Made by a program: the position numbers and the translations under genes | Shown: positions 1-40,974 of the stretch, piece after piece | How the letters are laid out: each line of letters begins with the position of its first letter | How positions within the stretch are numbered: the stretch's first letter is position 1 | Notes under the pieces: model-generated | The model's database searches: none | What the model was told of the DNA's origin: nothing | The model's input: the letters and a program-made list of their open reading frames with translations, nothing else | Source of the DNA: Myxococcota bacterium | GTDB taxonomy: Bacteria; Myxococcota_A; UBA9160; JAFDET01 | Assembly (NCBI GenBank): GCA_028278065.1 | Contig: JANQFA010000095.1 | Span: 3,349 to 67,348, forward strand | DNA: 64,000 nt | Direction: 5' to 3'

Positions 1-2878
1 TCTCACTTGAGAATCGCCACGACCGTTCGTAGGCGGAGGACCCAAACCGAAAACGTCGGCGATCGCTGACAAGCCACCGATACGCGAGATCGGCCGCGCG
101 CTCGGGTGCAGCCGCGAGGATCATGGCTACCAGGCGTTGACACGTCAGGAGGTCAGACGTCGCCAGTTGTCTGACTTGCGTCTCGAACTGCCGGAAATCG
201 ACGTTCGCCAGCCCTCCGCAGGCGCACGCAACCGCCTCAAGCATGGCTTCCGCGGAGTCGGGCCGAGTTCGATGCAGGCCATCCCCCCAGATGCGGTCCT
301 CAACGAAGGTAGTGCCATCGCCTTCCCCTACTTGTCCCGCGGCAGCCAGCTCTGCGATCGCTGGCACCAGCCGACGCCACACCACCGAGGAGTGAGTGGG
401 CGCCGCTTTCCTAACAACATCAAACTCGACGCCATCGAGCCCGACCAGTTCGCCTCGCCCTGTCCGTTCACCGAAGACGGAATCGGAAGTGTCGTCGGCT
501 GTCAGATGGGCCGCCGTGCTACGCACTGCTACCTCCAGCGCCTCTACGCACCACTCAGGACGGAACTCGGCAAGCTTGCGCCAAGCGATCGAGAAGCGAG
601 ATATCTCTCCGCGGGCCAGTGCGCGTAGTTGCAGCTCGAACATCTCCCTTGAGTCGTGCGCATCGGTGAACGCAACAGCGTTTGCCACTCGCTCGGGCCA
701 AGGTGACGGTTCATTCTCAAGCTCCTTGAGGGCACGCGCCACACGATCGCCACGTTCGCCTGCGAAGCGCCGGCAGATCCAGAGAGCACGATCTTCAGCT
801 TCTTTCGAGCCAGATCCGAGCCATTGCGCAAGGCTCCCGCGCTCGTCCAAGGCATCCAGCCACCCTGCCGATCGGAGCAGCACGAGTTCCTCGATGTGGG
901 CGGTCCACTCTTCGCGAGCTAGGTACCGCAGTACCAGCTCGACCTCGCGGTCCGAAGGCTGAGCTGCGCTACCGAGAACCTGCAACGCCAAGTGCTTGAA
1001 GTGGAATCGAACTCGATCATGTCCGAGGATCGCATCGATCCCTTCCAGGAACTCCCGTGGGTCCTCCTCACGGAGTAGTTCCAGGCCAAGACGCAGTTGC
1101 TCACGACGAAAGAGCGTCTGTTCCTTCTCAAGCAGCCAGCCCGCAAAGGTCGCGCGGCCAGCGTGCGCGGAATCGATGGCACGCCGCGCTACCTGGTAGT
1201 CGAAGTAGCTCTGATGGGCAAAGCGTAGGCGCCTGCCCCCGCGCGCCAGGATCCCCAGTGCTAGAAGCGCCTCCCCGACACGACCCTCGGCGCCAAGAAT
1301 GCTCTCTGGAGCATCTAGACGCTCCTGTGCGCTCATGAAGTCAATCAACCTCCCGATCGCTTCAAGCGCGTGGGCACCTGGCACGCCAAGCTCCTCAAGT
1401 TTCGACAGCCGGTCGTGCCAAAAAGCGCGAAGAAGGTCAGAGGCTGTTGAGAAGTCGCGAGGCCTGGCCCCATCGGCTCCGAGCTTACTCCACAGTGAGA
1501 GTCCCAACGGCGAGGACAGGACGCGCCGCTGAACCCGTGAGAGCGCGTCGTAGTTGCCGCCCAACGTGGCGATCCGCTCCCTGAGTTCATCTTCATCCAG
1601 AGGAGGGACTCTGATCTCCTCGCAATCCTGACCCTTGACCCACGCTCGAACTTGCGGATCGGTCTCCCAGTCGAATCCCCTACAAGCGACTACGACTCGG
1701 ATGTTGTCGAACGCCAACGCGTCTTGGATGACCTCTTTGCAGGCCTCCCACGCCGCTGGGCCGTGGCCGCTGGTCCATCGGATCGCGTCCAGCTGATCGA
1801 GAATGAGGACCGCGGGTCGCTCGCCTGCTAGCGCATGCAGGCAGAGCCCTGGCGATTCCGGCAGATCGCACCCATCGATTCCGAATCGTCTTGCACTTAT
1901 CGAGGGCATCCGCGCATCGAGCCTGATCGGTAGACATCGAACGCCCCGGGCTCTGAGGTCACGGAGTACGCTGAGGAGAACACAGCTCTTCCCAGAGCCA
2001 GCATCTCCGAGGATGGCGACAATCCGGGCACCGCGTTCCTCTTGAAGAACAGCAGCAACGCGGTCGGCGGGCACTCTCCGCAACAGGTCGTCGGCGATCA
2101 GCTCCGGCGCAAGCGACTCATCGAATTCGGAGCAGAGCGCCTCGATCCTGACGGCGAGACTTGCGTCAGCGGCGAGATCACGGCGACGTACGCCGCTGAC
2201 CTTCAGCCTTTTCGAAAGCCATTCATCTGTCAACGGACGCGCCCAAGACGTGCTCTCAGAAATCAGGTCTCTTAGAACCGCAAGGCCTTGAGACGGCTCG
2301 CCTTCGAACAAAAGGCGAGCGAGCGACAAGGGAAGACTCTCTCCCGAGCGCCCAGGCGGGAACACCTCGGCGCTCGAGCGGGTCAACAGGTCGAAGGCCT
2401 CGTCGCGATGCTCTGGGTTCTGAGGATCAAGCCCAAGCGCGGTGCAGAACTGATGGTGGGACTTTCGAGGCCCTTGAGTAGCCTGGACCTGAACACTGAA
2501 GAACCGGCGTGAATCGCCGCCAGCGCCTTGGGCTCGCTCACAGAGCCCACGGAAGTCAGGAGCCGGATCGCCCGATATGAACGCGTAGCGGAAGCTCGAA
2601 TCGCGCCGAAGCTGATCTCTGAGGTGGCGTAGAACGCCCCTACTTCGGAGGTCGGCTACCGACCAGCTCCCTTTGGACGCGTTGCCCCTCTTGCACTGCT
2701 GCGCCTCCTGTTGACCATCGGCGTAGACAACCCACAGATCGACACCTTCTTCAGCTTCGCCGAGGGGCTCGATCTCGACGGACTTCAGGCTACCCGCAAG
2801 TACATGCAGGAGCTGGAGGGCGACCCATGTTCCCTCGAACCGGTTCCCAAGCTTGTCAGCGCGCCCCCCAGGCTCCAC
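1..2878 (-). CDS. PD-(D/E)xK (Cap4/DUF4297-like) nuclease fused to a P-loop STAND-type NTPase with a long helical C-terminal region. Partial: the 3' end runs off the window, with at least 959 codons visible.
   Basis: Absent from the ORF track because no stop is reached before position 1. My hand translation of the minus strand is open from the TAG at 2902-2900 down to nt 1. The start is GTG at 2878, preceded by GGAG with a 7-nt spacer. The N-terminus reads GNRFEGTWVALQLLHVLAG..IEPLGEAEEGVDLWVV..EAQQCK, a D..ExK nuclease core. Walker A is ILGDAGSGKS (nt 2008-1985) and Walker B is VLILDQLD (nt 1810-1787). A winged-helix-like FAHQSYFDYQVAR lies at ~nt 1221-1183. No other minus-strand ORF in this frame appears in the track. 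Confidence 0.75.
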   Translation of the reverse strand, partial: MEPGGRADKLGNRFEGTWVALQLLHVLAGSLKSVEIEPLGEAEEGVDLWVVYADGQQEAQQCKRGNASKGSWSVADLRSRGVLRHLRDQLRRDSSFRYAFISGDPAPDFRGLCERAQGAGGDSRRFFSVQVQATQGPRKSHHQFCTALGLDPQNPEHRDEAFDLLTRSSAEVFPPGRSGESLPLSLARLLFEGEPSQGLAVLRDLISESTSWARPLTDEWLSKRLKVSGVRRRDLAADASLAVRIEALCSEFDESLAPELIADDLLRRVPADRVAAVLQEERGARIVAILGDAGSGKSCVLLSVLRDLRARGVRCLPIRLDARMPSISARRFGIDGCDLPESPGLCLHALAGERPAVLILDQLDAIRWTSGHGPAAWEACKEVIQDALAFDNIRVVVACRGFDWETDPQVRAWVKGQDCEEIRVPPLDEDELRERIATLGGNYDALSRVQRRVLSSPLGLSLWSKLGADGARPRDFSTASDLLRAFWHDRLSKLEELGVPGAHALEAIGRLIDFMSAQERLDAPESILGAEGRVGEALLALGILARGGRRLRFAHQSYFDYQVARRAIDSAHAGRATFAGWLLEKEQTLFRREQLRLGLELLREEDPREFLEGIDAILGHDRVRFHFKHLALQVLGSAAQPSDREVELVLRYLAREEWTAHIEELVLLRSAGWLDALDERGSLAQWLGSGSKEAEDRALWICRRFAGERGDRVARALKELENEPSPWPERVANAVAFTDAHDSREMFELQLRALARGEISRFSIAWRKLAEFRPEWCVEALEVAVRSTAAHLTADDTSDSVFGERTGRGELVGLDGVEFDVVRKAAPTHSSVVWRRLVPAIAELAAAGQVGEGDGTTFVEDRIWGDGLHRTRPDSAEAMLEAVACACGGLANVDFRQFETQVRQLATSDLLTCQRLVAMILAAAPERAADLAYRWLVSDRRRFRFGSSAYERSWRFSSE

Positions 2879-3258
2879 GGTTCCACTCCGCGTGTCGTCC
2901 TAGGCCGACTGTAAGAGACTTGAGAGGAGCTGTCTGCGGCGAAGCAGAGAGCGTCTGCCTCGAACCACGACCGTACAGGCTACTGGAGCTGGCGCGCTCC
3001 CCATCCGCCCGCGCCGATTTGACGACAAGGCGACGGACGCGTTGCATCGCTGCTTCCACGTTGGGCAGGCAATGGCTTTGCCCTCCGAGTCACCCCGGGG
3101 TTGCCACATCGCCACAGCGAGCATCCGTGCAGTCGTTCGCGCGACCCCGCTTGGCTGCGTGAATCAAGCGCTCAGGCATCACCGTGGGCGCATGCGAGCC
3201 GCCCCCTCAGACGGCTTCAGGGAGCGCTAGCTTTCTGTTCACCCCGGATCACGCGTCG

Positions 3259-3738
3259 CTAGGCCGGCCGCATCTTCTCACGGAGAGCCGCGCGAAACTG
3301 AAGCCGCACCGTCTTCGGGCTCTTGAGGTGGTGAGGCTCCCGATTTCGATAGGCCCTAACCTCCGTGTGAGCGTAGTTGTCCCAGTCTGGATCGTGAACC
3401 GGCTCGAAGGAAAAAGTGTCGATCTGTCCCCTGCGTTCCTTCGCCGTCACGACGAACGTGATGTTTCCGGGGATATCGCGCATCCCGAACTTCCAGGCCT
3501 CCCACCTTCGACGGTTGCCAACTATGACGCTTCGGGGCCCGCTGTACTTCGACCGATTTACAGACATATCTGGAAACCGGATCGCCGAGATATTCGGCAA
3601 GCGCTCATACCCATCACCGTCGATCTGATCCGGATCGATAGCGTGGTAGAATTCCTCATCACGTGCGAACCGGCTGTCCGGCCCTCTCCGTCGAAGCCAG
3701 TTAACTGAGGAAGTCGCGAAGTTGATCAATCGCTGCAC
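3259..3738 (-). CDS. Hypothetical protein (159 aa), third gene of a small overlapping three-gene cassette
   Basis: ORF track entry. It overlaps the upstream gene by 29-38 nt (GTG 3738 or TTG 3729). The composition is protein-like, with motifs SVNRSKYSGP and HDPDWDNYAHTEV, plus RNREPH (Rx4H). Third codon positions are AT-rich, unlike the rest of the window. The antisense ORF 3184..3708 looks less protein-like. Confidence 0.6.
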   Translation of the reverse strand: MQRLINFATSSVNWLRRRGPDSRFARDEEFYHAIDPDQIDGDGYERLPNISAIRFPDMSVNRSKYSGPRSVIVGNRRRWEAWKFGMRDIPGNITFVVTAKERRGQIDTFSFEPVHDPDWDNYAHTEVRAYRNREPHHLKSPKTVRLQFRAALREKMRPA

Positions 3739-4213
3739 GCAGCCTGCTCTCTTCGCTCTCGATGCACTCGACGGCAGGCTGGCGCCCCGCTTCGGAGAAG
3801 ACTAGCCCGACCGATCCATCGTTGAGGAACTCGACGGCAGCGTACTTCGAGGGAGCACGGAAGTTAAACGCGACGCCCTCTTCAACGGACGGCGAGATGC
3901 TCCGAGGTCGGAGGTTGGCCGCGAACAGCAGCCGCGTAAAGCACTCGGCAAACAGCAGAGTCCGAGCGCTAGGAGGACTGGCGCCCTGCGTGTCCCAATC
4001 CGGGGGAAGCACAGCCAGTTGTCGCAGCTTGTCGAGCGCAGCCTTCTGCCAGTCGACACCAGGCGCTAGGTCCCGATAGGACGCACTGCCTCGACGAGAA
4101 TCGAAAGACCGAACGCTCAGGATGACATCTCGACGTACGTCCGCGTCGGTCGTCATCTCCGTTAGCGACAACAGCGGCAGGTGGACCTCATGCGTTGCTG
4201 AGGGGCTAGACAC
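3701..4213 (-). CDS. Hypothetical protein (170 aa), middle gene of the cassette
   Basis: ORF track entry. The GTG start at 4213 overlaps the stop of the upstream gene (GTGTCTAG, 8-nt overlap), which suggests translational coupling. It carries the motif LPPDWDTQGASPPSARTLLFAECF. Codon usage is atypical for the window (TCT, TTT, GAT, CGA). Confidence 0.6.
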   Translation of the reverse strand: MSSPSATHEVHLPLLSLTEMTTDADVRRDVILSVRSFDSRRGSASYRDLAPGVDWQKAALDKLRQLAVLPPDWDTQGASPPSARTLLFAECFTRLLFAANLRPRSISPSVEEGVAFNFRAPSKYAAVEFLNDGSVGLVFSEAGRQPAVECIESEESRLRAAIDQLRDFLS

Positions 4214-4556
4214 CGCTATCAGTCCTCGCTGCGTTCAGTTGCTCGATTCTCTTCTCTAGCCAGTCTCTCAACGCGGTGGCCGTCGGGAGACTCAGGATCG
4301 CGGTTACCTCGCACTCACGAACCGGCCCATCGCGACCCAGGCGTTCGTCCGTCAGCTCGTCGCCAACCTGACCGGACGAGACCTCGTGCGTTGTGCGCTG
4401 GGGAATCGGCTGCCGCTCTGCGTAGAGGGTCATCTGGACAAACCCGTGCGGCGTGATGCCGCCGTGAGCACCGTCCACGTGGATCACGCGGTAGTCGGCG
4501 CTCTTGACGAAATGGAAGTTGATCCTCTCGGGGTGGTCAGCCACCTGTTCCTCCAA
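4206..4556 (-). CDS. Hypothetical protein (112-116 aa), first gene of the cassette
   Basis: ORF track entry with a TTG start at 4556. A better start is GTG at 4544, 6 nt after GGAGG. Beta-rich N-terminal half (INFHFVKSADYRVIHVDGAHGGITPHGFVQMTLY) with a C-terminal helix. It is faintly DUF3467-like in layout only, and I make no family call. Confidence 0.6.
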   Translation of the reverse strand: MEEQVADHPERINFHFVKSADYRVIHVDGAHGGITPHGFVQMTLYAERQPIPQRTTHEVSSGQVGDELTDERLGRDGPVRECEVTAILSLPTATALRDWLEKRIEQLNAARTDSGV

Positions 4557-4732
4557 GCCGGCGCGACGGAAGCTCCTTGGGCCACCGCCGATCTGGCTCT
4601 GTCTTTTCCCGCTGTCACGCTACCCCCTCGGGATCGGCGCGACAAAGTCGAAGAAAAAGCGAATAAGAACCCGGTCCCAGGCAAGTCTAGACCTTCTCGT
4701 CCGAGGGGATCTTTGGTGAGTCCCCGAGGGGG

Positions 4733-4984
4733 GGGGCTGTTCAGGATGCGCCTATATCGGAGAGCGCCGTATCTCGCCCAGGGCATCGCTGTGTGGGGGG
4801 GTACCCCCTTTCGACTCTCCTCCGTGGGGGGGCCGTATAGGGCCGTGGGGCCGTGCTGGGTGGGGCTGGGTGGGGCCCTGTGCGGGCCCCTGGGAGCGCG
4901 CAGACGCAAGCTCGCGCTACTTCTTGCCCTTCCGGGATTCTGGCAGTCTTGGGGTCAGGGGTTCGATCCCCCTCAGCTCCACCA
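4733..4984 (+). ncRNA. tmRNA-like (ssrA?) structured RNA with a tRNA-like 3' end. Alternatively, only the last ~30-40 nt are a tmRNA/tRNA 3' fragment left as an island att site.
   Basis: T-arm AGGGG-TTCGATC-CCCCT (4957-4973), then the 3' acceptor strand CAGCTCC (4974-4980), then ACCA (4981-4984). GGGGCTG at 4733-4739 can pair with the acceptor strand, including a G3:U70 wobble, which is the Ala/tmRNA identity pair. The interior is full of G/C-complementary hairpins (GGGGGGGTACCCCC, GGGGCCCTGTGCGGGCCCC, AGCGCG..CGCGCT). A strong terminator hairpin follows. No cloverleaf can be drawn and no canonical tag ORF was found. About 252 nt is short for a tmRNA. Confidence 0.45.
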
Positions 4985-4993
4985 CTCTCTTCG

Positions 4994-5022
4994 CGGGGTT
5001 GGCGAGATGCTCGCCAACCCCG
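4994..5022. terminator. Bidirectional stem-loop terminator
   Basis: A perfect 12-13 bp GC-rich stem, CGGGGTTGGCGAG / CTCGCCAACCCCG, with a 3-nt loop. It lies 10 nt after the CCA end on the plus strand and 7 nt after the TGA of the convergent giant gene on the minus strand. Confidence 0.6.
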
Positions 5023-5028
5023 TCGTTC

Positions 5029-8000
5029 TCAAGGGCCCGTCCGCCGCAGCTTGAAGACTCCGACGTCCTTGTCGATGTAGACGTCGGCACTCGGCGGATC
5101 GTCGTAGCGCATCCCAAAGCAGCTCCCGCCGCCTCCCGGGTGGAACTGAACGTCGTACGTCTGCGCCCCGATCCCGACCGAGGGCTGGAACGCCGGTATC
5201 GGCCGATCGGAATCGGCCCCGACCTCGGCGCCCTTGGCCACCAGGGTCAACTTCGACTTGCCCGGGGTGGTCGCGTCCGAACGGAGCAGGACGGACCGGA
5301 TACCGTCCGCAGCGGCGGCCTTGTCTACGTAGCGGTAGAGCTTGCCCGGGATCACCTTGATCCAGTTGGGCGACCCCGGGGGGATCGCCAGCTGGGTACG
5401 CAGCGCGTCGTCCGCATAGAAGCAGAGCCCCGCGCCGCCGCCCACGGGGTCACCGAACTCGTTGAAGTCCGTAACTCCACCCCGCAGCCACTTGAAGACC
5501 AGCTTCGCGTTGTCGCCGTTGACCCCGCCGTCCGCCGGCTCGAGGCGATCCTGCATGATCGTCAGGTTGAGGGCGTCGGTCCGACAGGTGGCCGGAACGA
5601 GGGGGCACGCGGGTGCGGCGGCGGACGAGCAGTCCGCACTGCACCCATCGCCGTCGATCTGGTTCCCGTCGTCGCAGGTCTCTCCCGCATTGACGATGCC
5701 GTTTCCGCAGGACGGAAGTGTGCAATTGGGATCGCACGCGTCCCCGCCGGCCAGGTTGCCGTCGTCGCACTCCTCCTGGATCTCCACGGCTCCGTTTCCG
5801 CAGGTCTCCAGATCGCAGGCATCACCGACGCCATCCAGATCGGCGTCGGCCTGCTCCACGTTGGGGGCATCCGGGCAGTTGTCCAATGCGTCCGGCACCT
5901 GATCACGATCCCGATCCGCGACGCCCAGGACGGCGATGTCCTCGACGCACGTGGCGTCGGGGTCGCAGCCCTGTTCGGCGGTGGGCTTGTCCAGGTCGCA
6001 GGTGCGCCCGGTGTCTCGAACGCAGCTGCCGATCGTCGCCTCCGGGTCGGGATCGAAGCAGAACTCGCCGGCACCGCACGTACCCGGCGCTCCAGGTGTG
6101 CATGACGCCGTCGTGTCGACCACGCAACGTCCTTCCGTGACGATGACCTGGTCGCTGCCCTCGCCCGGATCGTCCTCACTCGGGGTTTGCAGCGGATCGC
6201 TGCCCGTCCCGTCGTCGGGATCCGTCACCTCGGCCACCGGCCGCGTCTCGCCGGACACCACGTTGTAGACCTGCACCAGGACGTCGTCCTGGTCGCCGTC
6301 TTCGTTGAGATCCTCGCCCTGGTCTCCCTCGAAGGTGAGGAACCGCACGGTTCTGCTGGAAACCCGGTAGGGATTCCGCGGCTCACACTCGGACAGCCGG
6401 CAGGGAGTGACCGCCTGCCCCGTGTTGAGGAGCTGACCGCCGATCATGTCATACACCTGCAGGCCGTCGTCGCAGCAGTCGCCGTCCCCGTTCAGGTCGC
6501 ACTGGGAGATCGCGACGCAGCCCGCAGGCGCGGAGCAGTCCGGGGAAGGAACCGCCGCATCGCAGAAGTCGAGCTCGTGGCTGCGAAACGCCAGGAGATC
6601 CTCTCCCATCACGAACTCCTCGGCGGGCTGGCGGCGCCCGCTGCCATCCTCGATGGGAAGCAGGCTCAGGGCGGCAGCATCGTAGAGCTGCACGTAGCGG
6701 TCGGCGGCATCGCCATCCGAGGTCGCGTCCAGGCCAGCCTGTTCGGCTTCCGGCGTGATGAACGCCACCAGCTCCCCCGAGACGTCGATCGAATCCGCCG
6801 CCTGACCGACGTTGTCCCAGGAAAACGGCGGAGCGTCGATGTTGGCCGAGCACGGCAGGAACGGCGTCACACCCAAGGGAAGGACGTGAAGCACCCGATC
6901 CGATGCGTCCGCGTCGCCGTTCAGGAACGCCCCGCCCGCGTCGGCCTCCGGCACCAGGCCTGCAATGAAGGTGCCGGACATCGCCACGTCGCTGGCCGCG
7001 CACTGCAGGTTCTGGACGCCACCAGCCGTCGCAAGGTGCACCACCTGATCGTCGATGTCGCCATCACCGTTGAAATTCACACCGCCAGGGCACGCGCCCC
7101 CGCCCCCGGCTCCCTCCGGCCGGAGGAACGCCGCGCTCCCCGCCGCGACGGCGACGCGCCCTGCGGGACACAGGTTCGTCACCACCCCAGGTGGCCCCAC
7201 CGTCGTGTCGAGAGACCTCAAGACGGTGTCGTCGAGGTCTCCGTCGAAGCTCAGATCAGCCCCGAAGTCGCTCGGATCCGGACCGCGGACGAACACGTCC
7301 GAATCCATGTTGCCATCGCCCCCGACCAGGTTGGTTGCTCCGCTGTCGAACACGATCGAGCGACCGTCCGAAGCAAAGGGAGGGACGGCCCTCAGAAAGC
7401 TGGCGGCGTCCGCCTCGTTGCCTGCGGTGTCCAGGCTCATTCGTGTCGTGAGTCCGCTCGCGCGGTCGTGAACGAAGACGTCGTTCACGCCGTTGGTGTC
7501 ACCGTCCACGAGGTTGGTCGCGGCGCTGTAGAACGCGATGAACCGGGAGTCCGGAGACAAGTGAGGCGCCTCGCTCTGCCCGTCCGCCTCTTCGCCTGAC
7601 GAGCCCACGCTGATCCGGGTGGTGGCGATCCCGCCCGGCTCATCGAAGACCCCGTTCTCGTCGGCATCGCGATCATGGAGAAAGATGTCCTGCACCGAGT
7701 TGGTGTCGCCCGCCACGAGGTTGTTCGAGTCGTCGCTGAACACCACGAACCGCCCGTCGCCGGAGATCTGCCCGACCGAGCCCTGATCGTTCCCCTGCTC
7801 GCCGGTCGAGCTCACGCTCACCATGATGATCTCGATCTCTCCGGGGTCGTAGCCATCTCCCTCGTCGTCGAAGATCCCGTCTTCGTCGGCATCGCGATCG
7901 TGGACGAACATGTCGAAGAGACCGTCGGTATCGCCGGCGACGAGATTGGTCGCGAAGCTGCTGAACAAGACGTAGCGGCCGTCGTGAGAGACGCCGTGGC

Positions 8001-10431
8001 CCACCGAACGGTTGTTGCCGCCATTCCCGGCCGCATCGATGCTGATGCGAATCGTCTTGACCTCGCCGGGATCGATGATCCCGTTCCCTTCCCCGTCGAA
8101 GAGCCCGTCTCCGTCCGCGTCTCGGTCGTGAAGGAACGCGTCATCGGGAACGGCGACCAGGCCCCAGTTGCCCTCTCCCGGGGCGAGGTCGTTCGCCCGG
8201 CTCGTGATCACCACGAAGCGGCCGTCGGGCGAGATGTCGGAGGCGAACGAGAAGCCGCCCCCGTCGACGGCCTCGCTTCCATCGGACTGGACGCTCACGC
8301 GAACGGTCGCGATGCCACCCGGCTGGCCCTGCTCATCATAGATGCCGTCCTGGTCGAAGTCGCGGTCGTGAACGAAGGCGTCCCAATCGGCGTTCGTGTC
8401 CCCCGGAACGAGGTCGTCGAAGTCGGCCGAGAAGGCCACGAAGCGACCATCCGCCGCGAATCCGCTTCCCGCAGCACCCACACCGTTGCAACACCCGGGC
8501 CCAAACTCCTCGCCTTCGTCTCCGTTCGAGTCGACACTCACCCGGACGGTCGTGCCGGCTACCCGGTCCCGGATGAACACGTCGCGCACCTGGTTCGTAT
8601 CGCCGGCAACGATGTTGGTGGCGAACGAGGTAAAGGCCAGGTCGCGCCCCCCCCGGCCGAGGAAGCCCGTCGTGCTGAAGTCGTTCCCCTCGCCACCCGC
8701 ATCGGGCAGGCTCAGACGCTCCGTGAGCTGGGTGGCTTCAGCGGCCTCCGGGGTGCGAAAGAAGACGGTGCCGTCGGAGAGCGCGAGCGTCCGGCCGTCG
8801 ATGACGGGGTCGCTGGCGGCGGTGAGCGGGCCGGCAGGCGACAGCTCCCCAACACCAAGGGCGAAGCTCTTCAAGATCGGGTCGAAGACGTTGGCGTTCG
8901 CGTTCGTGTCGGTGTCGCCCTGCCCTGGCTCGGACTCGAGAAACGCCATGACCGACCCCTCGACCGCCACGGCGGGGAAACGGAACGGCCCCTCCTGGGT
9001 CCGCACGGCGGCGCGCCCGTCGCTCCCACCGTCCCCGATGGGCTGAAGGATGCCCGTCGTGCGGTCCCTGAGGGTGACGACGAAATCTCCCGGCTCGCCT
9101 CCCAGAGGGTCCCCGTCGGCATTGCGGTCGACGCCATCCACGTTCTCCGAGATCACGAAGGCGAAGTTGCCTGCGCCCTCCACGAGGCCTTCCAGCGGAA
9201 CCGGATCGTCGAGAACGGCCGTGTACTCCCCTCCGCTACCCAGGAGTACGACCGGCCCGATTCCGGCGTCGTAGCGGTCGCTGAAATCGAAGAGCTCATT
9301 GCTGCAGACGCTGGAGCTGCACTCGCCGTCGACCGTGCACGCCTTGCCCTCGTCGTCACCACCCACGCAGCCGCGTCGCGCGATCCGGATCACGCCTCGG
9401 GGTGCGTCCACCGATCCGAACAGCTCGGCGTCACTCACGGCCGGGTTGGCCAGGGCCGTGAAGACGGGAGGCAGGATGATCCCGCCGGGCGAGTGGGAAG
9501 AGATGAATCCATCGCCGGGGATCGTGACGGGCTGACCCGGAAGGTCCGTATCGGCATCCACATTCGTGGCTCCCCGGGCGAGCTGGGGGATCGGAACCCC
9601 GCCGATGCGCAGCAGGATCCCCGTGTAGTCCATCGGCGCCAGGATGTTGCCCGCAGCGTCCGTGGTGAAGTGCACCTCCGTAATGCCGGGGTTCGCGATC
9701 ATCGCCTCGATGTCGTTGGGGGGCGGCAACGCCACGAAGTGCCCGAACCGTTCGGCCAGATCGGCAGGGCTGGTTCGACAGGTACCGTCGAGACGGAAGA
9801 GCTCGTCCACGCAGGCGACCACGCCATGGGTCGACGTGTCTCCACCCAGATCGGCGCAGCGCTGGGTAGCCAGCCCGCACTGCAGCGGCGCGTTCCGCCG
9901 CGTCACGACGATCTTGGCCGGTCCGGCGAGAGTTCGGTCGTCGTTCACGCCACCGAGCCGATCATCGCTGTCGGGGAAGCGGAACCGGAGTTCGTTCAGG
10001 CTGGGAACGACCAGATCGATGGATCCTCCGGCGTTCAACTCGACGCACTCGGCGGTACCGCCGGGCCCGAGATCGGTATTGCAGTTGCTCAGGTCGAGGC
10101 CGGCACAGCTCTCCGCAAGGACGATGGCATTGGCTGCACCGTTGGGAGGCGTGAAGATCACCGACACGCGGTAGTCGTCCGCCGCGTCGCCATCCAGGTC
10201 GAGATCGACGAAGCCGGTGGACGTCTCGTCGCAGGCCGGCGGCCTCACGGCGACGCTGACGAAGTCATCGGGACTGGCAAAGGGCCGATTGAGGCTTCCC
10301 AGCGCACCGCGGAAATCACTCGACGCGGCGGGGATCACGTCGCAGATCGCGGAGGCATCAGGCGCGAAGGCCAGGAGCACGAGGGCGACGAGAAGCGAAC
10401 ACCTGGCGGAGCGAGCGAGCGGGCGATCCAT
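5029..10431 (-). CDS. Giant secreted multidomain protein (~1800 aa): a 7-blade PD40/TolB-like beta-propeller with Ca-binding-type inserts, thrombospondin type-3-like repeats and Myxococcus-type Cys-rich repeats
   Basis: ORF track 5029..10479. ATG at 10431 follows GGAGG and gives the signal peptide [28 protein letters not shown]. There are seven repeats of the type FxxFxSxAxNLVxGDTNxxxDVFxHDR. [11 protein letters not shown] inserts are present. [27 protein letters not shown] is TSP3-like. CGNGxxExxEeCDDGN..DGCsxxC occurs twice. Confidence 0.9.
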
Positions 10432-10718
10432 GGAGCCTCCACGCAGCATATCCGGGACAGCCGGCTGCACGGCGTTCAACGAAAGAGCATCGGGCGCTCC
10501 TCCTGTATATCACACAGCTCGGTGTAAGGACGTGAAGTATTTCACACGTGCCCTGCTCGCCCGAACGCCGTGTCCCGCGGAGCAACGATCCGTCTCCGGG
10601 TAATCACCGAGCCCCCCCAAGGGGCCAGATCCACCGGCGATGGGAATGGTGCCCACCTGATGATCTACAATCCGGCGGCCTGTTCACCGGACCCCTGGTT
10701 CGACGTCGTGGAAGGGGC

Positions 10719-12371
10719 GTGCCGACAGTAGGCGACACCGACCACCAGGCCGAGAGGCGAGCGCGGCGGTACGCCGTGGCGCTCGCTGTCTCGGCTGGGC
10801 TGGCGGGCGCCGCGATCCGCATCTGGGGTGGCTGGGCGTCCGTGCTCTGGGGGGACGAGTTCCACGTCCTTCTCGACCGCCGGCTGAGCGACCTCACCAC
10901 TGTCCTCACTACCTACGACGATCGCGGAACAGGCATCGGCTTCCCGCTGGCCCAGTACCTCTCGCTGGCCGCGCTGGGCCCGACGCTTCTCGGCTTGCGG
11001 CTTCCCGCGGTGCTCGCGGGGATCCTGGGACCGGCGCTCGCATTCTGGGCCGGACGACCGCTCGTCGGGGCCTCCGCCGCCGCCATCGCGGCCGCGGCCC
11101 TCGCGCTCAGCCCGCTCCACGTCTTCTACTCGACCTTCGGCCGCGGCTACTCGCTGGTCTGCATGCTGGGCTTGGTCCTTGGCGGGGCCTGCGCCCGAGG
11201 TATCGAGTCGCGACGCGACGGCTGGTGGCTCCTCGTCGCGGGGGTGGGCGGGGCCCTCATCTACGTCCACCTGACCTCCGTCGCCCTGCTCGCGGCGGGT
11301 TTCGTCGGATCGAGCCTGGCGGCCCGGAACGACCTCCGCCTGGTGCTGGTAAGAATTCTGCCAGCGTTCGGGACGGCGGCCGCGCTCGGCGCAGCGCTGC
11401 ACGTCCCGGCCTGGGACGGGCTGGCTGCGTTCTGGGAGGCCAAGGCTGGCGGAGGGATGTCGGGGGGAGGCTTCTCTCCGCTCGACGTCGCCACCCTGAT
11501 CGGCGGTAGCGAAGCGGGAGCGTGGATCTGGCTACTCGCTCTTCCGGCCGCAGCCGTCGCGTTCGCTCGATGCGGCGGGTCGCCGATCGTCCTGGCACTG
11601 GCGTTCGTTCCGGTGGTGATTCTGGGGGTGGTGAATCCGATCAGCAACGCGCCGGCATTCGCCCGATATCTGATCGGGATCCTCCCGTGGGGCTGGATGT
11701 TGGTTGGATGGGGCGTCGTGGCTCTGGTGAATCGAACTCGCCGCCCCAATGCCGAGCAAGCGGCCCTCGCCCTCGGCGGCGTCGCGGTCGCGGCGATGGT
11801 CTGGGCCTCTCCGATCGCTTCGGCCGCGCGGGTCGCTCCCTACGGAGCGACCTACCTGGGCATGTACTCCACGGGGGTGTTCGACCACCCGCTGCCAGGC
11901 GACCGGCGCTTCTACGGCAGCCTGGGTGCCGAGAGCGCCGTGGGAGTGATCCAGTTTCCGCCGGTTCGCCTCGGAGGCGCTCTGGTGTACCGGGCGGGAC
12001 GACTCGCGCTCGGTCGGCCGACCTGGATGGGCTACGTCGGGCATCCCCCGGCCGGGATCCACGGCGCTCCTCTGGTCGCCGTGGACGGACAGGGACCGCC
12101 CCCCTGCGACCGAGGCGAGGTGCTGCTCATCCTCTACCGAAATCTGACGTGGGAGATCCGCTCCTTCCAGAACGCCTCCAGCGCGGCCGTCACCAATGCG
12201 ATCGACCGGCCCTTCATCCGTCTCCCGCCCGTCGAGGCGCCGCTGGAAGCCTCCACGGTCGGCGCTCTCAGGGCAAGGTGGGGCGAACCGGCGCACGAGA
12301 CGCGTCGCCACATCGTGTGGAGGATCTCCTGCGACAGCTCGGGCTGGGGCGTGGGAGGAGAACCTGGCTGA
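10719..12371 (+). CDS. GT-C family membrane glycosyltransferase (ArnT/PMT_2-like, GT39/GT83-like)
   Basis: ORF track 10548..12371. The first ~57 codons look non-coding. An in-frame GTG at 10719 follows GGAAGGGG. Polytopic membrane protein with WGDEFH and RLPAVLAGILG..PL..FYSTFGRGY motifs, which are typical of ArnT-like enzymes. Confidence 0.75.
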   Translation: MPTVGDTDHQAERRARRYAVALAVSAGLAGAAIRIWGGWASVLWGDEFHVLLDRRLSDLTTVLTTYDDRGTGIGFPLAQYLSLAALGPTLLGLRLPAVLAGILGPALAFWAGRPLVGASAAAIAAAALALSPLHVFYSTFGRGYSLVCMLGLVLGGACARGIESRRDGWWLLVAGVGGALIYVHLTSVALLAAGFVGSSLAARNDLRLVLVRILPAFGTAAALGAALHVPAWDGLAAFWEAKAGGGMSGGGFSPLDVATLIGGSEAGAWIWLLALPAAAVAFARCGGSPIVLALAFVPVVILGVVNPISNAPAFARYLIGILPWGWMLVGWGVVALVNRTRRPNAEQAALALGGVAVAAMVWASPIASAARVAPYGATYLGMYSTGVFDHPLPGDRRFYGSLGAESAVGVIQFPPVRLGGALVYRAGRLALGRPTWMGYVGHPPAGIHGAPLVAVDGQGPPPCDRGEVLLILYRNLTWEIRSFQNASSAAVTNAIDRPFIRLPPVEAPLEASTVGALRARWGEPAHETRRHIVWRISCDSSGWGVGGEPG

Positions 12372-37121: not shown

Positions 37122-38978
37122 TCAGGCGCCCTCGGAGTCCGCGAAGAAGCCCCGGATCGTGGCGGCGTCCTTCTCGGAGATGCCCGGCACCGCCGCCAGC
37201 GCCTCGGCACTGGCGGCGCGCACCGCCTTCAGCGAGCCCAGCTCGCGCAGCAGCGCGCGCCGCTTCCCCGGCCCGATCCCCGGAAGCTCCTCGAGGATCG
37301 AGACCAGGCCCATACGCTGGCGCAGGCTGCGCTGGTACTCGATGGCGAAGCGATGGGACTCGTCGCGCACGCGCTGCAGCAGCAGGAGAGCGCGGGAGTT
37401 GGCCGGGAGCAGGATCGCGTCCTTGCGCCCCGGCCGGAAGATCCGCTCGGCCTTCAGGCCGCCCGAGCGCCGCACCCTCGGCTGCGGCGAGTCCTCGTCG
37501 CGCTCCTTCGCCAGGCCCAGGGTCTCGACCCGCAGACCCGCGTCGTGGAGGGCGGCTTCCACCACCCCCAGCTGTCCCTTGCCGCCGTCCACCATCAAGA
37601 GGTCGGGCAGAGGCTCCTTCTCCACGCGCGCCAGGCGACGCTGCATCACCTCGCGCAGGGCCGCGTAGTCGTCCGATCCCTCCACCTCGCGGATGCGGTA
37701 GCGCCGATAGTCGTTCTTGCACGGTCGCCCGTCCTCGAACACCACGCGGCTCGCCACCGTCAGCACGCCGTTCAGGGTGGAGACGTCGTAGCACTCGATG
37801 CGTCGCGGCGGCCCGGCCAATCCCAGTCGCGCGCGGATCTCTTCCAGGGCCGCGTCCAGGCTCTCGCGCGCCTCGAGGCGACGCGCCAGCCCGAGCTCCG
37901 CGTTTCGGCAGGCCGTGTCCATCAGCTCGCGGAGCGCCCCGCGCCTCGGCCGTCGCACCACGACGCGCCGGGACGCCCGCTCCACGAGCAGCGCCTCCAG
38001 GGCGCCGTCGTCCTCCAACGGCTCCGGCGTGAGGATCTCTCCCGGGACCTGGCGACCGCCGCCCCCGCCGTAGTACTGGCCGAGAAAGGAGCTCACGACC
38101 TCGCCCGGATCGAGCCGCACGTCCGAGAACCCGTAGCCGGCCGCGCCCACCACGCGCCCCTCGCGCACGTGGAGGACCTGCACCTCCACCTCGCCGCCGC
38201 GCCGCGCCAGGCCGAAGACGTCCCGGTCGACCGCCCGCGCGCCCACGATCTGCTGGCTCTCGACGGTGTGCTCGACCTTGTCGATGGTGTCGCGCAGGCG
38301 GGCGGCCTCCTCGAAGCGCTCCGCCGCGGCCGCCTCCTCCATGCGCCGCCGCAGGAGCGCCACCAGCTCGTCCGAGCGGCCGCGCAGGAAGAGCGCCGTA
38401 CCCTCCACCAGCTCCGCGTAGGCCTCCGACGTCACCCGGCCCACGCACGGCGCCCCACAGCGCCCCATCTCGTGCTCGATGCACGGCCGGCCGCGGCGCG
38501 CGTAGTCCCGGAAGACCGCATCGGTGCAGGAGCGCAGAGGGAAGATCCGGCGCAGGCTCGAGAGGGCCTCGCGCATCGCACCGCTCGATGTGTAGGGACC
38601 GAAGTAGAGCGCACCGTCCTTCTGGAAGCGACGCACCTGGGTGAGTCGCGGCCACTCGCCCTCCGGATCCAGGCGCAGGGCCAGGTACTGCTTGTCGTCG
38701 CGCAGCCGCACGTTGAAGGGCGGCTTGTGCTGCTTGATCAGCTCGTTCTCCAGGAGGAGCGCGTCCTTCACGTTGCGCGTGACCACCACGTCGACGTCCG
38801 CGGCCCGCTCCACCAGATGGGGAACGCGCAGCCGGCCGTCTCCCCCCGCCTGGAAATAGGAGCGCACGCGGGTGCGCAGGTTCTGGGCCTTGCCCACGTA
38901 GAGGACCCGGCCCCGCTCGTTCTGGAAGAGATAGACGCCCGGACTCGCGGGCAGGGCGTCGATGCGCTCCGGGTCCAC
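37122..38978 (-). CDS. uvrC: Excinuclease ABC subunit C
   Basis: GIY-YIG motif (PGVYLFQNERGRVLYVGKA) and a C-terminal (HhH)2. The track start at 39026 overlaps uvrB by 47 nt. GTG at 38978 sits 1 nt after the uvrB stop and gives a normal-length N-terminus. Confidence 0.9.
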   Translation of the reverse strand: MDPERIDALPASPGVYLFQNERGRVLYVGKAQNLRTRVRSYFQAGGDGRLRVPHLVERAADVDVVVTRNVKDALLLENELIKQHKPPFNVRLRDDKQYLALRLDPEGEWPRLTQVRRFQKDGALYFGPYTSSGAMREALSSLRRIFPLRSCTDAVFRDYARRGRPCIEHEMGRCGAPCVGRVTSEAYAELVEGTALFLRGRSDELVALLRRRMEEAAAAERFEEAARLRDTIDKVEHTVESQQIVGARAVDRDVFGLARRGGEVEVQVLHVREGRVVGAAGYGFSDVRLDPGEVVSSFLGQYYGGGGGRQVPGEILTPEPLEDDGALEALLVERASRRVVVRRPRRGALRELMDTACRNAELGLARRLEARESLDAALEEIRARLGLAGPPRRIECYDVSTLNGVLTVASRVVFEDGRPCKNDYRRYRIREVEGSDDYAALREVMQRRLARVEKEPLPDLLMVDGGKGQLGVVEAALHDAGLRVETLGLAKERDEDSPQPRVRRSGGLKAERIFRPGRKDAILLPANSRALLLLQRVRDESHRFAIEYQRSLRQRMGLVSILEELPGIGPGKRRALLRELGSLKAVRAASAEALAAVPGISEKDAATIRGFFADSEGA

Positions 38979-38979
38979 C

Positions 38980-40974
<1,995 letters not shown>

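Follow-up and report, generated by a model that had tools for sequence, protein, structure and literature searches.

We describe here a gene at the left edge of a 64,000-nucleotide stretch of DNA (the window) from an uncultured Myxococcota bacterium (GenBank assembly GCA_028278065.1, contig JANQFA010000095.1, positions 3,349 to 67,348 of the forward strand), which likely encodes an Avs receptor of the Avs7 type. Its reading frame is intact, and the product would constitute a single-gene system in which a Cap4 nuclease, a STAND nucleoside triphosphatase (NTPase) switch and a helical-repeat sensor of about 1,000 residues are joined in one polypeptide. The initial annotation, made from the letters of the window alone, had singled out this locus as an edge-truncated gene missed by the list of open reading frames (ORFs) and had read it as an effector nuclease, a STAND ATPase and a C-terminal sensor following Avs-like logic. 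The frame was confirmed, the complete product of 1,622 amino acids was recovered, and all three modules were borne out. Additionally, profile and hhalign matches to SeAvs7 of Salmonella enterica make Avs7-type a more precise address than the one first proposed. The product is labelled 'hypothetical protein' in public records, and it can now be annotated as a probable Cap4-armed antiviral STAND receptor related to Avs7.

The gene and the signal preceding it were located as follows.
2-2878, minus strand: in-window part of the Avs7-type antiviral STAND gene, residues 1-959 of 1,622, assigned from the stop-free frame, the identity to the public protein and a Logan contig
2886-2889, minus strand: Shine-Dalgarno-like GGAG, 7 nucleotides upstream of the GTG start at 2878

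An open-frame scan of the window found no stop codon on the minus strand from 2899 to 2, a run of 966 codons with a chance expectation of about 7e-13 at the approximately 0.029 stops per codon given by the local base composition. The first start codon in this frame is the GTG at 2878-2876, from which 959 codons lead to the left window edge, and the N-termini of homologues coincide with the residue that it encodes, sharing the pattern M..E.GG.ADKLGN. The gene is missing from the ORF list because its frame runs off the window and such frames are not listed. The complete product (P0001) is 100% identical to the window part, and its gene is carried both by the NCBI contig (73,024 bases) and by a Logan contig (L001) that spans the whole gene with two mismatches to the window over 4,851 bases. 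Beyond the left window edge there are thus a further 663 codons, or about 1,989 bases. The initial annotation had placed the sensor end and any downstream partner outside the window; the first part holds, as the 663 codons include the sensor C-lobe, and for the second no conserved partner was seen in relatives. A decaying pseudogene or an assembly artefact is exceedingly improbable. The window edge does truncate the gene, and a Nostoc plasmid bears a related gene interrupted by an IS630 element, which shows that such genes do get inactivated, but the frame is unbroken over the 1,622 codons in the two independent assemblies, all conserved motifs are intact, and homologues of about 1,550 residues can be aligned with the protein from one end to the other.

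The relationship to SeAvs7 (WP_079981830.1; PDB 9N00, 9N01 and 9YIX), described by Lee et al. (Nature 2026; PMC13581612), was found with a full-length family profile that was built from 48 sequences and run against the PDB. The profile matched SeAvs7 at E = 1.8e-50, and this was the sole STAND protein matched among the PDB entries. Two collinear stretches make up the match, with positions 49-661 aligning to SeAvs7 residues 46-641 over the nuclease part and the NTPase (independent E = 1.8e-38), and positions 1015-1432 aligning to residues 988-1397 of the sensor C-lobe (independent E = 3.5e-9). An alignment-based profile was needed for this search because the full protein, compared with the PDB as a single sequence using phmmer, returned RecA P-loop noise only. 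Further, hhalign gave a probability of 100% and E = 2.6e-48 against 22 SeAvs7-like proteins. A protein search with SeAvs7 residues 46-641 yielded only incomplete proteins, at most 1,041 residues long. Judged by these alignments, homology to SeAvs7 covers the nuclease, the NTPase and the C-lobe of the sensor. The two proteins have the same module order and are both encoded by standalone genes, and SeAvs7 (1,523 residues) is close in size to the relatives of about 1,550 residues. Both keep the D...QCK motif of the nuclease, the two Walker motifs, the sensor arginine and the histidine of the winged helix. Unlike SeAvs7, the window protein is about 100 residues longer, has an N-lobe with no detectable similarity, lacks the EF-Tu contacts and comes from an uncultured Myxococcota bacterium rather than from an enterobacterium.

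For the N-terminal effector, the following features were assigned.
2084-2878, minus strand: predicted Cap4-type PD-(D/E)xK nuclease effector domain, residues 1-265, from an AlphaFold2 model, Foldseek and the profile match to the Cap4 domain of SeAvs7
2690-2848, minus strand: nuclease motif block GNRFEG...QQCK, residues 11-63, from conserved columns in the 27- and 48-sequence alignments
2834-2836, minus strand: E15, in the nuclease motif block together with E37
2738-2740, minus strand: D47, in the nuclease motif block
2690-2698, minus strand: Q61-C62-K63, in the nuclease motif block

The initial annotation had recognised a D..ExK-type nuclease core in this region and had proposed a structure prediction; the core is well supported by the present results. 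The AlphaFold2 model of residues 1-268 has a predicted local distance difference test score (pLDDT) of 90 and a predicted template modelling score (pTM) of 0.83, and it contains an alpha-beta-beta-beta-alpha-beta restriction-endonuclease core (helix 13-28, strands 31-36, 48-52 and 57-63, helix 74-92, strand 97-102) followed by a helical subdomain. The 12 best Foldseek matches of this model are all Cap4, followed by LmuA and NucS/EndoMS; the Cap4 matches (6vm5, 6wan, 6vm6 and 6wam) have E = 5e-6 to 6e-5 over about 230 columns, and Cap4 and LmuA (9hr5 and 9nxx) taken together have E = 5e-6 to 3.5e-4 over 230-250 columns. The stretch previously described as a linker of about 250 residues turns out to be the helical remainder of a Cap4 domain of about 265 residues. 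Among 27 relatives aligned over residues 1-268, no variation is seen at G4, G5, G11, N12, E15, W18, E37, G45, Q61, K63 or W72, and an acidic residue (D or E) occupies position 47 in the sequences inspected, which means that the catalytic E / D / (E or Q)-x-K set is present in the window protein. Residues D47, Q61 and K63 align with D46, Q60 and K62 of SeAvs7, and the 27-sequence nuclease profile matches the SeAvs7 Cap4 domain (PDB 9N00) at E = 1.6e-5. Sequence and model together thus support a Cap4-type PD-(D/E)xK nuclease, for which cleavage of double-stranded DNA is predicted.

The central module comprises the following features.
1034-2071, minus strand: putative STAND NTPase module (NBD-HD1-WHD), residues about 270-615, from the family profile match to SeAvs7, sub-threshold Pfam matches and the PADLOC model PDC-M54A
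1985-2008, minus strand: Walker A GDAGSGKS, residues 291-298 with K297/S298; G291, G294, G296 and K297 are invariant, and the motif aligns with SeAvs7 K291/T292
1787-1810, minus strand: Walker B VLILDQLD, residues 357-364; D361, Q362 and D364 are invariant, and D361 aligns with SeAvs7 D358
1679-1681, minus strand: sensor-1 arginine R400 in the motif ACRGFD, invariant and aligned with SeAvs7 R395
1184-1222, minus strand: winged-helix motif FAHQSYFDYQVAR, residues 553-565; H555 and Q556 are invariant, and H555 aligns with SeAvs7 H545

In the 48-sequence alignment these elements keep the canonical order of Walker A, Walker B, sensor-1 arginine and winged-helix histidine. All motifs quoted in the initial annotation were found, in the order in which it gave them and where they were expected. 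Its Walker A and Walker B carry the invariant residues, and its winged-helix-like FAHQSY motif holds the counterpart of SeAvs7 H545. The conserved residues and the alignment with SeAvs7 support the assignment of the central module to the STAND NTPases. In SeAvs7, K291/T292 and D358 bind ATP-Mg, R395 contacts the gamma-phosphate of ATP and H545 contacts the beta-phosphate of ADP (PMC13581612); the text of that paper gives 'Thr291, Lys292', a trivial swap with respect to the numbering of its own Table S1, in which the residues are K291 and T292.

The third module begins within the window and extends beyond it.
2-1021, minus strand: first third (N-lobe) of the predicted alpha-solenoid sensor, residues 620-959 of 620-1622, all-helical in the structure model

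The more than 400 residues of helical sequence that had been noted to continue past the window edge correspond, in a model of residues 620-1622 (pLDDT 83.8, pTM 0.64), to an all-helical solenoid of about 1,000 residues with weak HEAT signatures. The sensor was tested separately since the NTPase could carry full-length alignments. A hidden Markov model (HMM) of the sensor alone, built from the 48 sequences and run with filters off on a 280-residue segment of the SeAvs7 C-lobe, matched residues 988-1267 at E = 7e-7, compared with E of at least 170 for shuffled controls. The hhalign alignment passes through the N-lobe only if it is anchored by the NTPase. Taken together, the sensor C-lobe is homologous to that of SeAvs7 as far as profiles can tell, and the N-lobe appears too diverged for any similarity to be detected. 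At its C-terminus the model has a 10-residue helix (model residues 993-1002, i.e. residues 1612-1621 of the protein), where the sequence match to SeAvs7 is not significant; in SeAvs7 the terminal sensor helix spans residues 1511-1521, and a short helix of conserved length is described for Avs7 (PMC13581612).

A number of observations weigh against the Avs7-type reading. In pairwise alignments with SeAvs7, only 22-27% of positions are identical across the nuclease and the NTPase, and curated models perform poorly on both domains. Pfam PF14130 (Cap4_nuclease) has no match in the window protein at E <= 1 and matches two of the 27 relatives below the cut-off (best 7.7e-4), and single-sequence Pfam and NCBIfam scans gave no nuclease match and sub-threshold P-loop or STAND matches only; the PF14130 search suggested by the initial annotation as a check would, on its own, have looked falsely negative. 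The curated Pfam STAND models likewise all fall below their gathering scores on the window protein, with AAA_22 at 23.9 bits (cut-off 27), nSTAND1 at 20.1 (27.1), NACHT at 14.9 (26.7), and nSTAND_NTPase5 and NB-ARC as further sub-threshold matches. Precomputed NACHT, AAA_16 or nSTAND5 matches exist for some relatives. The NACHT/AAA_16 search also proposed at the outset therefore failed to reach threshold for the window protein, while the STAND residues are kept and the SeAvs7 profile match stands. For the sensor, Foldseek returned only generic HEAT/ARM folds (such as karyopherins, CAND1 and SF3B1) at a template modelling score of about 0.2 from a library apparently lacking SeAvs7 entries; because SeAvs7 seems to be missing there, the assignment of the sensor to Avs7 rests on sequence profiles. 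A sensor profile of 13 sequences with default filters missed SeAvs7, which we attribute to the filters and the shallow alignment because the unfiltered run finds it. The N-lobe alone, compared with the SeAvs7-like proteins, reached only E = 0.065 at a probability below 1% in hhalign. As both sensor lobes of SeAvs7 enclose the capsid protein (PMC13581612) and N-lobe similarity is not significant, target specificity is not secured. Finally, the EF-Tu contact positions (SeAvs7 Q999, D1003, K1044, H1048 and D1059) are not conserved; the family consensus there reads k, g, e, n, and SeAvs7 K1044 faces an acidic residue in the window protein. This agrees with the report that the EF-Tu contact residues are conserved in one Avs7 clade only (PMC13581612), and assistance by EF-Tu is probably not conserved in the clade of the window protein, judging from the aligned residues.

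Some of these observations speak for the alternative of a sister family, which would have the Cap4-NTPase chassis and the C-lobe in common with Avs7 and would use its diverged N-lobe to bind another phage protein (e.g. portal, terminase or tail) or a non-HK97 capsid, without EF-Tu. The N-lobe result, the lost contacts and the low identity are what such a family would look like, many Avs families with distinct targets are reported in PMC13581612, and cyanobacterial proteins with a SeAvs7-like NTPase barely match the window-family sensor (E = 0.035 for a 1,709-residue Tolypothrix protein, or no match), so relatedness of the NTPase is no guarantee of the same sensor. We nevertheless consider a sister family unlikely, given that the sensor C-lobe specifically resembles SeAvs7 and no other helical-repeat protein in the PDB is similar, that length (1,523 versus about 1,550 residues) and domain order are collinear with SeAvs7, and that the Avs7-type sensors of SeAvs7 and EcDsr1, which are very different proteins, both respond to capsid protein (PMC13581612). 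A related and rather doubtful proposal is that the environmental clade as a whole (at least 1,584 clusters at 50% identity, E <= 1e-30), with its remodelled N-lobe and without EF-Tu contacts, might sense a component other than an HK97 capsid, or capsids unseen by SeAvs7, without a host co-factor; if true, it would represent an Avs family of its own, responding to a new trigger.

The setting of the relatives is consistent with a defence role for an Avs7-type receptor. The relatives number more than 200, among them WP_100616857.1, RJQ38130.1, MBC8876615.1 and MBP7764389.1; nearly all have about 1,550 residues and can be aligned over their full length, and they come from Planctomycetota, Nitrospirota, Syntrophia, Omnitrophota, Bacillus cereus, B. 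thuringiensis, Paenibacillus, Halobacteriovorax and many metagenomes. The sensor-only profile retrieved representatives of 3,546 clusters (50% identity) with E <= 1e-3, including the 1,584 at E <= 1e-30. The B. cereus relative (NMYL01000015.1, 1-20647) lies in a dense defence island with an OLD-TOPRIM ATPase and a UvrD helicase (Gabija-like), an SLFN-type helicase, a PHP-AAA gene and a further AAA_15 ATPase. A Lacipirellula relative adjoins a prophage tail gene, a resolvase and an Mrr nuclease, and a relative on a metagenomic contig adjoins Mrr and HNH genes. Neighbours vary at every locus examined, with no conserved partner gene and no recurrence of any neighbour of the window gene; the relatives are standalone genes whose neighbours are often defence-related or mobile. 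It is in this regard that a non-immune function has to be weighed, namely a signalling or transcription-linked STAND ATPase with a degenerate and inactive N-terminal PD-(D/E)xK fold. Many STAND clades are not related to defence according to PMC13581612, in which the STAND tree comprises 589 clades, and the Pfam nuclease models stay below threshold, but the residues of the nuclease motif do not vary between phyla, relatives reside in defence islands and beside prophages, the closest characterised relative, SeAvs7, is a proven defence protein, and the gene lies on an islet of foreign composition. We thus regard a non-immune function as highly improbable. Shorter proteins that bear the sensor, of 1,160-1,250 residues, were considered as Dsr1-like fusions and rejected, being N-terminally truncated copies of the same architecture.

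Two cyanobacterial plasmids carry further genes with SeAvs7-like parts. In Nostoc sp. MS1 (plasmid pNSMS101; L086, 5845-11670), a SeAvs7-like Cap4-NTPase gene is split by an IS630 transposase into an 828-residue N-terminal part and a 707-residue remainder, with the insertion sequence at 8403-9457, and this is an example of a receptor inactivated by insertion. The Tolypothrix protein mentioned above, from a plasmid of Tolypothrix sp. PCC 7712 (L087, 4272-9401), is annotated as 'caspase family protein', has a SeAvs7-like NTPase (31% identity), and is encoded with a gene for a trypsin-like peptidase on one side and another caspase-family gene on the other.

For a receptor of the Avs7 type, we infer the trigger, the oligomeric state and DNA cleavage from the homology to SeAvs7. 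At rest, the protein would be ADP-bound and auto-inhibited, and during infection a newly made phage protein would bind the sensor. The most probable trigger is an HK97-fold major capsid protein, although its chances are only about even. Binding would lead to the exchange of ADP for ATP and then to oligomerisation through the NTPase and Cap4 domains; the SeAvs7 oligomer is a tetramer held together by its Cap4 domains (PMC13581612). The assembled nuclease would cleave double-stranded DNA, stopping phage replication and being toxic to the cell, as is reported for SeAvs7 in the same paper.

Compared with other known systems, the N-terminal domain shares the PD-(D/E)xK core and the helical extension of CBASS Cap4 (6VM5, 6VM6, 6WAM and 6WAN). 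CBASS Cap4, however, is activated by cyclic oligonucleotides via SAVED, whereas the nuclease of the window gene shares a polypeptide with a STAND NTPase and a putative protein-binding sensor. Lamassu LmuA (9HR5 and 9NXX) also has a Cap4-like nuclease fold and, according to the entry titles, is active as a tetramer, but it is controlled by an SMC-like LmuB/LmuC complex rather than by a fused STAND module. SeAvs3, a Cap4-fused Avs3 that senses terminase, has the same combination of Cap4 nuclease, STAND NTPase and helical-repeat sensor, and its nuclease is activated by tetramer formation (PMC13581612); in contrast to SeAvs7 it is absent from the PDB profile matches, and the window protein has no Avs3 sequence match. 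Among PADLOC models, searched with the window protein and four relatives, Avs1-Avs5 gave no match, and only PDC-M54A and a marginal HerA P-loop were found. The Avs-profile search proposed in the initial annotation was therefore empty for Avs1-Avs5, and the family profile pointed to SeAvs7 instead. The candidate model PDC-M54A is the best PADLOC match (E = 7e-21) and, with 1,621 profile positions, is similar in length to the window protein; SeAvs7 also matches it weakly. Its match is nevertheless limited to the NTPase (residues 288-574) and one HEAT-like stretch, by which measure PDC-M54A is a relative and not the same family as the window protein. No mention of PDC-M54 was found in the literature searched.

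The Avs7 architecture thus appears to reach uncultured Myxococcota and many environmental lineages; PMC13581612 lists 3,272 Avs7 homologues and 9,097 Avs7-sensor proteins (Tables S7 and S8), and the accessions of six relatives were absent from the portion of these lists that was searched. In the clade of the window protein, neither the nuclease nor the NTPase is picked up by curated single-family HMMs, which makes profile and fold searches necessary. With its diverged N-lobe and missing EF-Tu contacts, this clade represents a reasonable test case for the evolution of sensor specificity on a fixed chassis. No new principle is at stake because the kind of system and its mechanism are already established; the gene is a distant member of a mechanistically solved kind, and the one point of some novelty is the target of its diverged sensor.

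Directly upstream of the Avs gene lie three small ORFs.
4206-4556, minus strand: small ORF of 116 amino acids
3701-4213, minus strand: small ORF of 170 amino acids
3259-3738, minus strand: small ORF of 159 amino acids

They overlap by 8 and 38 nucleotides, and their GC content at third codon positions (GC3), 0.68-0.78, resembles that of the Avs gene (0.66, at 62% overall GC) and not that of the host, for which the adjoining chromosomal genes have about 0.85-0.95. The break falls between the region from 1 to about 4560 and the region from 5029 onward, and it suggests a small horizontally acquired islet. The three ORFs have no significant Pfam, PHROGs or PADLOC match (marginal DUF7696 at E = 0.087 and PDC-M32A at E = 0.002), and in a search of 5.8 billion proteins the 170-residue protein matched only itself. 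Positions 1-12000 showed neither a tRNA gene nor an integrase, and signals for promoters or terminators at the islet did not rise above chance. Next to it, at 5029-10479 on the minus strand and unrelated to the Avs gene, a predicted secreted protein of 1,816 residues is encoded, with many D-rich repeats (FVHDRD.D.DG) and a C-terminus of DUF4215 cysteine-rich repeats of the Myxococcus type. Elsewhere (15129-48435 generally) the window is ordinary chromosome with genes for UvrC, CysS, SecD, ComEC, a TolC-like protein, glycosyltransferases and GDP-mannose dehydratase, and the host is placed among uncultured Myxococcota by its UvrC (37122-39026), which is 81% identical to that of the metagenome-assembled genome 'FCS_M_Myxococcota_03'.

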